Shown: piece by piece, positions 5,006-14,030 of the stretch
How the letters are laid out: every line of letters starts with the position of its first letter
Numbering within the stretch: position 1 is the first letter of the stretch
Assembly (NCBI GenBank): GCA_000934665.2
Contig: JYFJ02000985.1
Span: 1-64,000 of the forward strand
DNA from: Catajapyx aquilonaris
Lineage: Eukaryota
DNA length: 64,000 bases
Direction of reading: 5' to 3'
The notes under the pieces: generated by a model
What the model was told of the DNA's origin: nothing
The model's database searches: none
What the model saw: the letters and a program-made list of their open reading frames with translations, nothing else
Translations under genes and position numbers: made by a program

Positions 5006-8000
5006 TTAGCTGTTGGCCATCCACGAGGGGAGAGAGTGGTCGCGTCTCCTGGTCTGCAGCTGGTGGACCAACCTCCACATCTTGAGGGCAGGACCGAGCT
5101 TAATCCCCAAGACGGTCAGGACGTCCAATCTCTGCATCATGAGCAGGGAAGGGCCATCAATCTCCTGCTTCTGGAAGGCCGAAGCCCACTCGTCAGAGAA
5201 GCCCTGGCACTTGAAGTAGGTCTCGACCATTGAGGGTGTCCACTCGGAAGCATCGGGAATTGTAGGGTCCGGTGTGTCGCCGTCCACTGGCGAGTCGGAC
5301 ACTGGAGATTCGCGAGGTGTTGGCAGACCTCCCGCACCGTATGTGCCTGGAAATACGCACAAGTTACGGTCATGTTGCCAACAGGTTGGTGCAAGAGTAC
5401 TTACTGTGGTTGCGAATTGCCCCATTGCTGTCATCCTTGCAAGTGGTGCAAATCCACTTCCCCCTTGGCTTTTCCATGACCTCGGGTCTGTGGCAGGCCA
5501 TGTGGAAGCCTTTGTCGCACAAGTCGCACACCAGCAGGGTCTCCTTCGACAAGAAACCAGGATGATCCCTTGTATTTACGCACACAACAGCATGACTTAC
5601 AGCATTGTGGGACTTCTTGCACAGAGAGCAAGTCTTGCAGTCCATGCACTGCCAAGGTGACATGCGGCTGCGGAGGGCCAGTTCTTCGCTGTATTCCAGG
5701 CAGCTCGGATGGGCTGAGTGGTACAAAACATTGTTAAGAAGATGTCACTACAGTAATAGCACATTCATTGGCAGAAATGACATGTTATATTCTCACCTTT
5801 GAGCCTGCAGTCCTTGCAAACCAGCAGCTCCTCATACTCGCCCCTCTTGTTGGACTCCGCAGTCTGTTGGCAATATTGGCAGTGCTCTGATTTGCTGCTT
5901 TCTGGCTCGACAACCACAGCTGGCGGGGCCTTGTTGGCCTTTCCAGGAGGCCGTCCCACTCCCCGCCCGGTCTTGCATCCACCCCTGGGCCTGCGTTGGG
6001 GCGACGGTGGAGGCCGGGAAGGAGGCGGCCCACCGTTGGTTGATTCGGCTGGGTTGGGGAGCAGGGTTGGAGGGGACGTCTGATTAGCTGCTGCGACTGG
6101 AGGAGGTGGTGGGGCAAGAGCCAGAGGGGCTGGACTTGGAGGTGCGGCAGGCGATGGTGCAGGGGAAGGTGACTGCTTGTTCTTGCTTCCAGCCGGACGA
6201 CCTCGCTTGCGTGGATGCTCATGGTCGGAAGGATCAAACACTTTGCGTGCCCGCTGGAAATTTGAAAACGGTGGAAAGATCAGGCAGCTGGAATAAACAT
6301 CCGGACGTTAAATGCACACTCTTATGTGCAGGCTCATACGCATTAATCCACAATGAGCACTTATGTAATTCAACACATTAATGCACCGCTGCTACCTTTG
6401 AAGTCTATGATTGCACATAGACTGTACAGTTGTATTGATGGGAAAGGTCCTGTTACATGTACATGCGACAGTGTTAACTTTGGTACTGCTGTAATTTTTA
6501 ACAGTCAACTACGTAACTAGCAATTAGGGCCGGTTTCACCAAAAGCGGTATATGATAAAATCGTGGTTATTCCAGAAAAATCCAGAAAAATACGTAGGGA
6601 TTCTCCGAAAGAACCCCGGTTTATCATATACCTCTCTTGGTAAAACCGGCCCTAATTGCTAGTTACATAGTTGACATTGTTGAAAATTACTGCAATGTCG
6701 GTAAGTTCAGACATACTTTAGACTGCTGGGTATATCCGGCCCCATTTGTGCCATTCAATTGGGTCTAGTTGTGTGATTAGTGGCAAATTAGAAATACCAC
6801 GTGCCCTGCAATTAACCAAAGTTAATTGAATACCAGCCTCTGTTAATTATCAGCGTAATAAACCGGCCGCTTTTACTTTTAGTGCATCCGACCCTACTTT
6901 TGGTCGAATTCACCACAACCTGGTTAAAATTTCTAACCTCGGTTTTAACCCTGGAACCGTGCCGTTTTAGGACCCCATGTCATATTTTAATTTTTATGTA
7001 ATACTTTTCAATGTATTTATATGCAATCATTCTTTGAACACTGCCTAAACTGATCGCTAATTCAAAATAAACATGCACTTCCTGTTATATACTTTTTTCT
7101 AAATAGCAAAAGTTCATTGTAATTATCATTTTAATTCCTTTGGGGTCCTCCTAAAAGACCCCATGTCACTGGTTCTAGGGTTAAAATGAATCGCCATTGT
7201 TGACAACAAATAATCATTTTCCGAAAAGAAACTCTGATTTATAATCGGACCAGCCAGTTAAACCCGGTCTTAAGATTTATAACCTCGGTTTTAACATATG
7301 TATTGCCATAGCAGACATTGTTGACAACAATCATAGGTAAAGGATTTTCAGAAAAAGACACTCAGCCTGCTTGGTTAAACCTGCCAGTTAAACCCGGTCC
7401 AGAATTTAAACCCCGGGTTTAATAATCCGACCAATCACGTGCCGCCACGTGTGTCCTCCTGATTGGTTAGGGTCACCACACCCACGGCGCCATATTTGAA
7501 ACCTGCAGATATATTACAAACGCCCTGTTAAAGTTGGGGACCTATCACACCAAAAAAAAATTTGCAGAAAAAAAAATGAAATCGTATAGATTTTCGTGAG
7601 GTGAGCGTGATTCTCCGGACTCACCCCCCCTCAACTAGACTGGATCGATTTTTGGCGGGGAAAAGTGGGTGTGGAAAGAGACGTGGATGGGGGGGGGGGG
7701 GGTNGAGGGGGTGTGGGGTGGACATAAATGTGCCGTCCACCCCAAAAAAAAATTGTTACGAAAAAAAATGCGTATGTAGGTATTCTGATGGATATTGTGC
7801 AAATATAATGCAGTGGATCAATTTGCAGTGTGTGTGTGTGTGTGCCACACACATCCCCAGCAACCCGAGATCCCGTCAAGAGATTTTTCCGCGCCGTTGC
7901 CATGACTTCCAGAGAGACGCCCGGCGAACTAAATATAGCCACGCAAACTATCGCCGTGGAAAAAAAAGAGCGAGAGACAGACTGTGGGCGTGTAACCCCG

Positions 8001-9966
8001 TGTCGCAATAATCGCAATTAAAAAGAGCTCCCTTTTTTGAAAAATACCTGGTATATGACACCCCCACTTGCATCAAGGACACAGCAAAATGTCCAGTTCG
8101 CGCTAATATTATTTTGCTAGCCGCATATCTTATCTGATGATATCCCCCCCCACCTGGGACGTGTTATCCGGGAGCTGCAAAAAGGATTATTGGGTGCGAA
8201 AAAAAATTCTGCCTAATTTTTTTTTAGCGAGGAGTTTATGGCAACGTCTTGGTGCGCAGGAAACCGTGAGATCTCGCACTTGCACCGACGTGTAAAATAT
8301 GGCCCCGCATACACAGCCCAGCATTTCAGGGACAAGCACACGTATATAATTCAACCGATTGAACTAGCAGTACGGATTTATAGTCGCAGAAAATATTAAC
8401 GAGCCTCCGGAATTATTGCAGACTGAGCTGACTACTTATCATGGCGAATATGTACAATTTCATGTAGGTATAAGAGTGATCTCTCCATGTTCGTCTGGAT
8501 TTTCTCGGGGGTTCTTTTTACCGTATCCAACCTGTTTCAGCATCAAGTACACTGTAAACCGCAAAAAACATTAAAAGAGCGTCACTGGTAAGTCGCCCAT
8601 TTTTAATGCTCGTTTGTTACCAAAAAGGGATGAAAAGTGTATTAAAAAATTGATGCTCCATGGGAGACTCACCAGTGGCCAGTGATGCTCATTTAATGTT
8701 GTGCTGTTTACAGTGTACTTGTTATACTTATCATGGCGAATGTCTCAATTGCCATATTATGATCTCTCCATGTTCGTCTGGATTTTCTCGGGGTTTTCTT
8801 GCTTCTCGAACATGTAAGTAGATCAGGACTGTTCAATAATAACGCGCATTCATCCTTCCGATTAGTCCTGACAATAGGGAAAGATGGCTATCAATGGGGG
8901 GTCTTTACCTAAGTACTATTCTTAGTCTGAATACAGAGCCATAAGGACTGTCAGAGGTCATGCTGCTACTAAACGACGTGCTCTATCGCATTCATTACAT
9001 CTGGCATCCTGTTGATGGCATTAAAAAGAGCGCGCTTTGAGGTCACTGACCCTGGTGCTGGGGGATCAGTGAACTCTTGGGCCACAAGTCACTGGGGTCA
9101 GTGACCTCGTTGGCCATTTTTGAGTTCACTGACCCCTACACTGTGTGGGTCAGTGAACTTTCCGGCCAGGATTCACTGACCCCTTGAGGGTCAGTGAACT
9201 CGTCGGCCATATTGGGGTGACTGACCTTTCGCCGCATTCCGACGCTTGCGAGCGACGCGTTGTTGCTGCTTCCTGCTGGCGCCTCCTCGTCCCCATTCTC
9301 CTGCTGGCGCCCCTGTTGCTGCTGCTGATGGATCCTCTGCTTGACCTGCGAGAGTGCGTCTGGTGAGAGGATGTACGTCTCCGGGTAGGTCTGGACCAGC
9401 TTCCCGGCGTTCAGCTCCCTCTGCAACAGCATTTGCAATCGACCCTGTGAGAACCTGGTGTCCACCAGTCGCTGCTGGATGTCCCTGAGTGGGACACCTG
9501 CCGCCAGAAGCTCCGGACGCGTCAACAAAATAGTGGACACGGCGTCCCTCAGCAGCCGGCTGGTCCTATCCGAATTAGACTGATCCCCATTGCTGCTATC
9601 ATTATTGTTATTATTGTTCCGGCCGTGATTATTGTTCCCAGCAGCAGCAATATTAATTGGGCGTTTGGCCCTCTTGCTGCTCCTGCCCTCTGCCGGAGCC
9701 GGGTCTGAACCAACGGCCCTGTCCCGGTAGAGCTCGAACTTGGACCACTTGGCCGCGTTCCTGTAGCTGAAGCTCCCCTTGTACTCGACTTTGACCACGG
9801 CCTGCTGGTCCACCAGTCTCTGCAGCAGGAGGCGACAGGTCTTGGGGTCCACGCCGTGCCTCCGCCAGACCAGGCTGCAGATGCGCTCCAGGTCGGGTCG
9901 CGCCTTGCGGCCGCGGAGCTGGTCGATGGCCTCCAATATCAGCTCCTTCTGACGCTCTTCGCCCAT
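5006..9966 (-). CDS. SAMD1/atherin-like chromatin protein: winged-helix + putative second WH + AT-hook-like motifs + double PHD finger + SAM domain
   Basis: Exons 9966-9226, 6253-5797, 5713-5601, 5543-5405, 5346-5006 with consistent GT-AG phases. WH motif ILEAIDQLRGRKARPDLERIC...VEYKGSFSYRNA; PHD1 CQYC...CKDC..AHPSC; PHD2 CMDCKTCSLC...CDLCDKGFHMAC...WICTTC; SAM WTPSMVETYF...FQKQEIDGPSLLMM...LGIKLGPALK. Confidence 0.85.
6488..6693. mobile_element. Palindromic MITE-like element (inner GGGCC...GGCCC, Harbinger-like)
   Basis: Long imperfect inverted repeat GTCAACTACGTAACTAGCAATTAGGGCCGGTTTCACC ... GGTAAAACCGGCCCTAATTGCTAGTTACATAGTTGAC. Confidence 0.6.
6949..7180. mobile_element. piggyBac-like MITE, copy 1
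   Basis: TTAA on both sides; termini CCCTGGAACC ... GGTTCTAGGG; internal sequence is the reverse complement of 25373-25653. Confidence 0.75.
8550..8715. mobile_element. MITE with CACTGTAAAC termini and TA flanks
   Basis: TA-CACTGTAAAC ... GTTTACAGTG-TA with internal inverted symmetry; sits between ~70-80 bp direct repeats (about 8432-8512 and 8726-8795). Confidence 0.6.
9040..9227. promoter_or_regulatory. Cluster of IR1 nuclear-receptor (EcR/USP-type) elements
   Basis: RGKTCA-n-TGAMCY matches at 9040, 9095, 9123, 9147 and 9188, with near matches at 9063, 9170 and 9215. Confidence 0.5.
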
Positions 9967-13578: not shown

Positions 13579-14030
13579 TAGGCCTACTTTTCAGGGTCAC
13601 AAAACTTCCACAGCTGTTTCGTCGGGTCAATATGGAGCTATTGTAAAAATACAAGCACAGCATCGGGGGTCTATTAAAGTACATCACCAGCAGCTGTAGC
13701 AAAAGTATCGATCCATCCAAACTTCCCTATTTAAAACCGCTGCAAATGTTTTTATGATTACACTTTTACTGACTAATAAAAGCCATGACGTCACACACCG
13801 CCCTTCAAAAGTATGTCACCCAGTACATTAAAAAAAATTGAAGGTCTTTTTCTGTGTAACTACCCATGTTCTTCACAATGTAATAATAAAAAAAGTGTCA
13901 GTACTTTTTTTTTTTTTTGTCGTACAATGTGTGTAATAAATACTCACTGATGAAACGACACCGGTTTCCCTTCGTCGTCTCTGTCCCCTCCTCTCGAAGC
14001 ACAGTTTGGAACAGCGCAATGCTTCACCAT
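12429..14030 (-). CDS. THAP zinc-finger domain encoded by two exons (downstream exons unresolved)
   Basis: Exon A 14030-13948 MVKHCAVPNCASRGGDRDDEGKPVSFH(Q), donor GTGAGT, phase 2. Exon B 12630-12429 FPLHNQELLDEWVHRVGRSKFWQPNSHTVLCGKHF...LKPDAMPTIF...PTG, donor GTAAGC, phase 0. Full C2CH signature plus the FP, W, HF and AVPTIF-like motifs. Confidence 0.85.

Follow-up and report, generated by a model that had tools for sequence, protein, structure and literature searches.

L(3)mbt in flies and L3MBTL3 in mammals are tethered to chromatin by Lint-O and SAMD1, respectively, and in the available parts of PMC9535798 and PMC8115922 the choice of their targets is left open. Here, we ask whether one gene of this kind can carry two alternative N-terminal DNA-binding modules, a THAP zinc finger and a SAMD1-type winged helix (WH), on a single body of two PHD fingers and a SAM domain. 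The question is raised by the minus strand of a 64,000-nt stretch of Catajapyx aquilonaris DNA (contig JYFJ02000985.1 of assembly GCA_000934665.2, positions 1 to 64,000; hereafter the window), for which a preliminary description, made from the letters alone, had proposed such an exchange of heads. The exons, splice junctions, both open frames and the domain identities could be observed directly, as could a tick pair of WH and THAP forms on an identical body, and we consider it likely, with good confidence, that the locus is one Lint-O/SAMD1-like gene whose two alternative 5' modules place a WH form and a THAP form on the same body.

A THAP head spliced onto a PHD-PHD-SAM body

Transcript evidence came from one public run (X1), which contains one quarter of the sampled words of 4700-14300 and whose library type is unrecorded. 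We regard the run as cDNA-like on two grounds: over window positions 1-20000, introns on both strands are missing from its contigs, and canonical ends (GT..AG or complement) are found in 13 of the 15 joints listed there; 12 more joints and 68 contig pieces of the same interval are unlisted. These are de Bruijn contigs, which speak to local continuity only and not to single molecules, isoform levels, starts or ends. One of them (record 2; 1918 nt, 0 mismatches) contains both THAP exons and the whole PHD-PHD-SAM body, and the features that it crosses are as follows, with the extent of each contig piece given in brackets.

13948..14060, minus strand: THAP exon 1, with ATG at 14030, 83 coding nt (27 codons + 2) and ~30 nt of 5' untranslated region (UTR) in the contig (piece 13946-~14060)
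12429..12630, minus strand: THAP exon 2, 202 nt, acceptor ccccgcag|G, donor GGG|gtaagc, ending in phase 0 (piece 12429-12628)
9421..12428, minus strand: THAP-form intron, 3008 nt, within which lie a cluster resembling miniature inverted-repeat transposable elements (MITEs), the presumed promoter of the WH form and 546 nt from the start of its coding exon
9226..9966, minus strand: WH exon, ATG at 9966, 741 nt, 247 codons, phase 0, identified by Pfam, AlphaFold and a colinear contig
9226..9420, minus strand: segment common to both forms, 65 codons, starting at the internal acceptor ttgcag|AGG GAG (R183-E184) (piece 9226-9420)
5797..6253, minus strand: body exon 1, with RARKVFDPSD, KRGRPAGSKNK (resembling an AT-hook), a linker rich in prolines and the N-terminal half of PHD1 (piece 5797-6253)
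5601..5713, minus strand: body exon 2, with the remaining half of PHD1 and the beginning of PHD2, Cys columns nearly invariant (piece 5600-5713)
5405..5543, minus strand: body exon 3, PHD2, Pfam PHD E 7.9e-10 (piece 5404-5542)
4648..5346, minus strand: last exon, with a linker, the SAM domain, stop TAA at 5008-5006 and 3' UTR to at least 4648 (piece 4648-5345)

Every joint of record 2 reads CT..AC, i.e., GT..AG on the minus strand, and when its exons were rebuilt by script from the window the result was exactly 1918 nt, in which 509 codons are open between ATG 14030 and the stop at 5006; because of this exact rebuild and open frame, we take the THAP exons to be spliced to the body. The decisive joint leads from donor 12429 of THAP exon 2 to an in-frame acceptor at 9420 within the WH exon (context gctgttgcag|AGG GAG, entering at R183), skipping 3008 nt with CT..AC ends and with 195 letters on its shorter side. 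The same contig joins the two THAP exons (12628->13946, cut +2, CT..AC), continues from the common segment into the body (6253->9226), and carries the joints 5713->5797 and 5542->5600 between body exons.

This route differs from the one first proposed. The preliminary description had expected the THAP exons to join the body directly at 6253 and had named the junctions 12429->6253 and 9226->6253 for checking: the latter was seen, within the THAP contig, while the former, which would be in frame too, is absent among the 15 joints listed (12 more being unlisted), and the joint actually observed is 12429->9420. Its statement that no coding exon lies between the THAP exons and the SAMD1-like gene fits the contigs, among which the only one seen to leave 12429 joins 9420 directly, and we likewise rejected an overlooked coding exon between 12429 and 9966 for the form seen. 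The frame that reads on beyond donor 12429 stops at 12381, and in none of the listed contigs does the sequence end in or continue through the DNA immediately 3' of that donor, an absence that is weak evidence as contig cover and depth are uninformative on absence or levels (12007-12428, for example, is without contig cover).

A joint of this kind could also arise if two separate transcripts had been fused by the assembler or by template switching, and the junction does come from a single contig of a single run of unrecorded library type. We regard this as very improbable: only 1 letter is common to the two sides of the joint, which leaves no repeat to bridge them; on the coding strand, the intervening 3008 nt run GT...AG; the donor at 12429 is the one predicted beforehand from the DNA alone; and the rebuilt length is exact to the base.

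The THAP domain itself is complete. The description's two exons (14030-13948 and 12630-12429, with the phase-0 donor GGG|gtaagc) proved exact in coordinates and phases. On exon 2, Pfam finds THAP (PF05485) with an E-value of 3.2e-11; the score of 44.3 bits is above the cut-off of 23.9, and the match covers 23-87 of the 87 profile positions. Of the C2CH finger, exon 1 encodes the first Cys pair and exon 2 the Cys-x2-His, together with the AMPTIF box, giving in the spliced domain C5-x4-C10-x48-C59-x2-H62 and the box, with all four zinc ligands present, when compared with what we take to be the THAP consensus of the literature (C2CH spacing and an AVPTIF-like C-terminal box). Against solved structures, exon 2 is closest to the THAP domains of THAP2 (35.6 bits) and THAP1 (29.7 bits); a word-indexed protein search with the same exon over longer proteins gave 11 candidates, none at E<=0.01. 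To our knowledge, the stand-alone THAP1 and THAP2 genes encode a coiled coil and no PHD or SAM domain, whereas the window's finger is spliced onto a Lint-O-type body.

The likeness to THAP1 extends to gene structure. THAP exon 1 ends at the donor TCA|gtgagt, after two bases of codon 28, and the first residue of exon 2 aligns with THAP1 residue 25, so that an intron after the first 23-27 codons has the position and phase of human THAP1 intron 1; according to the available part of PMC4049367, human THAP1 exon 1 ends at coding base 71, in phase 2 within codon 24. This intron position suggests an old cellular THAP gene structure. Recent capture of a transposon, as in a host-transposase fusion with a P-like element, was rejected on the THAP1-like intron position and on copy number, the THAP region (12300-14200) being single-copy in the 64-kb window, where tblastn finds one THAP only.

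In the body, the PHD match on body exon 3 lies above Pfam's cut-off, as does SAM_1 on the last exon (E 1.6e-5, 25.6 bits against a cut-off of 23), and Pfam reports no family on three of the eight pieces scanned (THAP exon 1, exon 6253-5798 and exon 5711-5601). The latter two share PHD1 between them, and their Cys/His columns align with those of relatives and are invariant or nearly so. KRGRPAGSKNK and the other motifs of body exon 1 are present in the consensus of relatives, and they are common to both forms. The 57-nt intron between the PHD exons (5544-5600) is stop-free and in frame, such that its retention would add 19 residues between PHD1 and PHD2; in the contig seen it is spliced out.

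The winged-helix exon and what the THAP form keeps of it

The WH exon was described exactly (9966-9226, ending in phase 0), and its identity is clear: SAMD1_WH (PF21524) matches residues 8-70 (9757-9945) with E 1.9e-26 and 92.4 bits against a cut-off of 24.5. The SAMD1-type WH is followed by a disordered Asn-rich linker and then by a second folded domain at residues 127-220 (9307-9588). An AlphaFold model built from a 12-row alignment has a mean pLDDT (predicted local distance difference test) of 77 and exceeds 85 in residues 1-70 and 130-220. With residues 1-75, Foldseek retrieves the SAMD1 WH-DNA complex 6lui (61% identity, TMt 0.91) and the KAT6A WH 8h7a/7y43 (42% identity), while residues 127-220 are modelled as helix-helix-helix-hairpin-helix, a predicted winged-helix or linker-histone-like shape.

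A second X1 contig (record 3, 446 nt) runs colinearly from 9395 to 9840 and thus crosses the acceptor at 9420 unspliced. It is what the WH form predicts, and unspliced THAP pre-mRNA could also produce it.

Entry at acceptor 9420 costs the THAP form a good part of this exon. R183 lies within helix 174-187 of the AlphaFold model, and because residue 183 sits inside that helix the THAP form loses most of the second domain; it drops the first WH (WH1) as well, and the 65 residues that it retains comprise the hairpin, a single helix and a tail rich in Gln. The neighbouring E184 is invariant in all 12 aligned sequences (11 relatives and the window). Such a cut, which removes both N-terminal domains, is what one would expect if the THAP form were a WH-less partner that co-polymerises through its SAM domain and adjusts or inhibits the WH form, its THAP finger being used for protein contacts or having no role; self-association of SAM domains is indeed known in this family, as stated in the part of PMC8115922 available. 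We nevertheless find this improbable, as the THAP domain is complete, with its four zinc ligands and C-terminal box, and scores 35.6 bits against a solved THAP2 domain, and as THAP heads are retained in ticks and scorpions (see below).

Directly 3' of donor 9226, which reads AAG|GTCAGTCAC, four copies of a 27-nt unit occupy 9058-9209; the core of the unit is GGTCAGTGAAC, whose inverse, GTTCACTGACC, lies close by. This repeat beside the donor could form hairpins in the pre-mRNA.

Relatives of the Lint-O/SAMD1 type

To which family does the body belong? With the SAM exon as query, HMMER retrieved 675 proteins at E<=0.001, of which the best 150 were listed; at the stricter level of E<=1e-10, 140 library proteins match. 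A word-indexed search with the same exon gave 1 match (Daphnia) among 51 candidates. Pfam was run on 121 of the best 150 (2 above 1300 residues and 27 below 150 were left out) and found SAM_1 in 91, PHD in 66, SAMD1_WH in 57, Linker_histone in 4 and THAP in 2. One of the Linker_histone matches (P0066, residues 93-162) falls between WH1 and the PHD fingers. Relatives retrieved with the WH exon have SAMD1_WH in 51 of 51 and PHD in most, with THAP in none; the beetle and bee proteins among them are named "L(3)mbt interactor in ovarian somatic cells" (Lint-O), and others were auto-named KAT6B-like, PHF10 or SAMD1. The bodies nearest to that of the window are a Logan protein (52%) and arthropod proteins. 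By sequence, the window gene belongs to a WH-PHD-PHD-SAM family that includes insect Lint-O.

Lint-O of Drosophila (CG2662) resembles the window gene in having tandem PHD fingers followed by a C-terminal SAM domain, and the available part of PMC9535798 describes two PHD fingers and a SAM that is required for L(3)mbt binding; insect orthologues in beetle and bee have SAMD1_WH and PHD, and insect relatives are only ~30-38% identical to the window over the WH exon. "THAP" occurs 0 times in the available text of PMC9535798, and binding of L(3)mbt by the window protein would be expected only by analogy. Vertebrate SAMD1 (atherin) has an N-terminal WH of PF21524 and a C-terminal SAM of the L3MBTL3-binding kind, and the available part of PMC8115922 reports binding of unmethylated CpG DNA for its WH, and for its SAM both self-association and binding of L3MBTL3. 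It is, however, without PHD fingers and without a THAP alternative, and it has a small helical domain (PF24971) that was not found in the window gene. The N-terminal half of KAT6A/KAT6B shares the order of a SAMD1-type WH, a second winged-helix or linker-histone-like domain and tandem PHD fingers, whereas the window gene is without the MYST acetyltransferase domain and has a SAM instead; many of the relatives carry KAT6B-like as an automatic name.

THAP heads on the same kind of body in ticks and scorpions

The preliminary description had suggested looking for THAP together with PHD and SAM in related arthropods, and that search was productive: THAP, two PHD fingers and SAM occur together in 2 of the 121 scanned relatives, one from a tick (P0111, Haemaphysalis longicornis LOC144163087 isoform X2) and one from a scorpion (P0173, Centruroides vittatus). 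A further case is another tick, Rhipicephalus microplus, where LOC119181397 has an isoform X1 (XP_075731725.1, 539 aa) that is WH-PHD-PHD-SAM and an isoform X2 (XP_075731726.1, 514 aa) that is THAP-PHD-PHD-SAM; the last 266 residues of the two are identical, and both are placed on one 109,575,144-base contig. Both this gene and the Haemaphysalis longicornis one (LOC144163087, X2/X3) belong to the same family as the window gene and make the same WH/THAP swap. These tick models are RefSeq computer predictions and are uncharacterised. They differ from the window in where the forms part, which in ticks is 30 residues ahead of PHD1 with no portion of the WH exon in common, while the window THAP form keeps 65 residues of it. 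In the ESM Atlas, the best score of the tick THAP form (0.76) was to a PHD-only cluster.

In Centruroides, XP_067118416.1 and XP_023235774.1 have THAP, two PHD fingers and SAM and are of the same family. The arrangement is different: the THAP type (P0173) and the WH type (P0075) lie on separate contigs with bodies ~49% identical, so that on these sequences the scorpion THAP type appears to be a gene separate from the WH type. The scorpion pair may be one two-headed gene that was split after duplication.

The description had also stated that it knew this architecture from no described gene. As far as papers go, that stands: in the literature searched (supplements not covered), we found no description of a THAP head on Lint-O/SAMD1-type proteins. 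The architecture is not new to the databases, where it is present, uncharacterised, in the RefSeq tick and scorpion models.

These comparisons bear on a further explanation of record 2, in which a small independent THAP gene lies upstream and the contig is a read-through or conjoined transcript, a by-product without a function of its own. The THAP exons do have a promoter-like region of their own and an intron position typical of stand-alone THAP genes; were donor 12429 left unused, the frame would end 15 codons on at 12381, leaving a short protein with THAP alone; a designed first-exon switch would not usually have its acceptor within a coding exon, as it is at 9420; and transcript levels are unreadable from contigs. 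We still judge this explanation unlikely. The join is in frame and opens the full 509 codons to the normal last-exon stop, no listed contig ends in or crosses the DNA 3' of 12429 (weak evidence, as said), and the same product is annotated in a tick as one isoform of a gene and in scorpions as a gene by itself, which is difficult to reconcile with noise.

Two alternative 5' modules on one body, the reading that we prefer, is supported by the spliced record 2, the colinear record 3 and the tick isoform pair, much as first proposed, and several observations weigh against it. First, the junctions rest on the single run X1, with its de Bruijn contigs and unrecorded library type. Second, the WH-exon contig could be unspliced THAP pre-mRNA, and no junction specific to a WH start was seen in run X1. 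Third, there is no THAP in 119 of the 121 scanned relatives, and the head-body junction of the ticks is at another position than the window's 9420 (residue 183, 65 codons before the body exon); how the tick junction relates to the window acceptors is ambiguous, as three alignments disagree on a match to 6253. Fourth, the window THAP head is only weakly like that of the tick (24 bits over the whole domain), and exon 2 scores 14.3 and 16.7 bits against the tick and scorpion THAP heads, which score 25.9 bits against each other; by these comparisons the window head is no closer to tick and scorpion than to human THAP2 and THAP1, and the fusions may have a common origin or come from repeated capture. 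Finally, a protein product, its DNA binding and its contact with L(3)mbt in Catajapyx aquilonaris would follow only by analogy with characterised relatives.

How old the exchange might be is a separate matter. An ancestral gene, arthropod or older, may have carried both heads, with the switch conserved since as isoforms in ticks and in the window organism and split between genes in scorpions; we put this forward tentatively, as something possible rather than probable. With a CpG-reading winged helix and a sequence-specific THAP finger, such a gene could have sent L(3)mbt repressor machinery from one locus to two sets of genes, and THAP factors would be physically linked to repression of the L(3)mbt type, whereas nematode genetics is known to bring the two together only as separate synMuv B genes. 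In a quick tree of 29 bodies, 13 of the 26 inner branches were unresolved.

Proposed model and its consequences

In the model that we favour, transcripts starting upstream of 14030 would include the two THAP exons and splice from donor 12429, over the WH start codon, to acceptor 9420. Their product would be a protein of 509 residues consisting of the THAP finger, a 65-residue linker, the AT-hook-like motif, tandem PHD fingers and SAM. Transcripts starting at ~10000-10200 would use ATG 9966 and give the WH form, whose 596 codons encode the SAMD1-type WH, the second winged-helix-like domain and the same body. We infer that both proteins are made. Going by Lint-O and SAMD1, the WH form would bring an L(3)mbt-type repressor to CpG-rich DNA, and the THAP form, with a sequence-specific zinc finger, would take the same body to other sites; such retargeting to different DNA, as the preliminary description had envisaged it, would thus hold by analogy.

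The isoforms would, by the same analogy, amount to a natural experiment in which the targeting head differs and the histone-reading, polymerising body is held constant. The uncharacterised THAP-PHD-SAM models of ticks and scorpions would then be real products of a conserved family rather than prediction errors, and the locus would offer a clean example of a transcription factor exchanging its head via alternative first exons and an acceptor within a coding exon. What we describe is isoform-level variation on known domains, and it is surprising for the field of L(3)mbt/SAMD1 targeting.

Putative start regions, repeats and flanking genes

Two start regions, one upstream of 14030 and the other at ~10000-10200, are plausible from the sequence. 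The two candidate promoters are as follows.

14061..14930, no strand assigned: putative distal promoter of the THAP form, between the contig 5' end (~14060) and a plus-strand open reading frame (ORF) near 14930, with TGACGTCA at 14211-14218 and 14300-14307
9967..10230, minus strand: candidate region for the proximal promoter and 5' UTR of WH transcripts; contains TGACGTCA (10176-10183) and ACGTCA twice more

The stretch at ~10170-10225 that had been called rich in cyclic-AMP response elements (CRE) does carry TGACGTCA, at 10176-10183 upstream of the WH ATG, and a separate WH promoter would lie at ~10200. Two copies of the element precede the THAP ATG by 180-270 nt and one precedes the WH ATG by ~210 nt. 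In the whole window the element occurs 8 times where 0.77 would be expected (~tenfold), a total of 8 was reached in 0 of 100 shuffles, and TGACGTCA may be a common promoter element of Catajapyx aquilonaris. The further copies are at 4479 and 4547, between convergent 3' ends, at 13786 in THAP intron 1, and near 49688 and 50174 (49688-50181).

Between the THAP exons and the WH start region lies a palindromic MITE-like cluster (10340-11640; 1.3 kb in units of ~140 nt), with 14 copies of the core ACTGCTAAGTTAGCAGTA and inverted arms of up to 60 nt. X1 contigs fall on this cluster, some with loose ends (10578, 10598 and 11630), and because of these contigs MITE-like copies elsewhere may be transcribed.

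The gene has a plus-strand neighbour on either side. The convergent one (2918-4426) is spliced in X1, with five GT..AG introns of 59-108 nt and a frame end at 4434. The divergent one (~14930-20000) starts ~900 nt from THAP exon 1 and has the GT..AG joints 17433->17489 and 19816->19875. Pfam found 0 families in five plus-strand ORF pieces of these genes (three convergent and two short divergent ones). The start of the divergent gene may resemble an N-terminus of the cyclin-G-associated-kinase type. This divergent gene and the gene of THAP exon 1 may share a bidirectional promoter.

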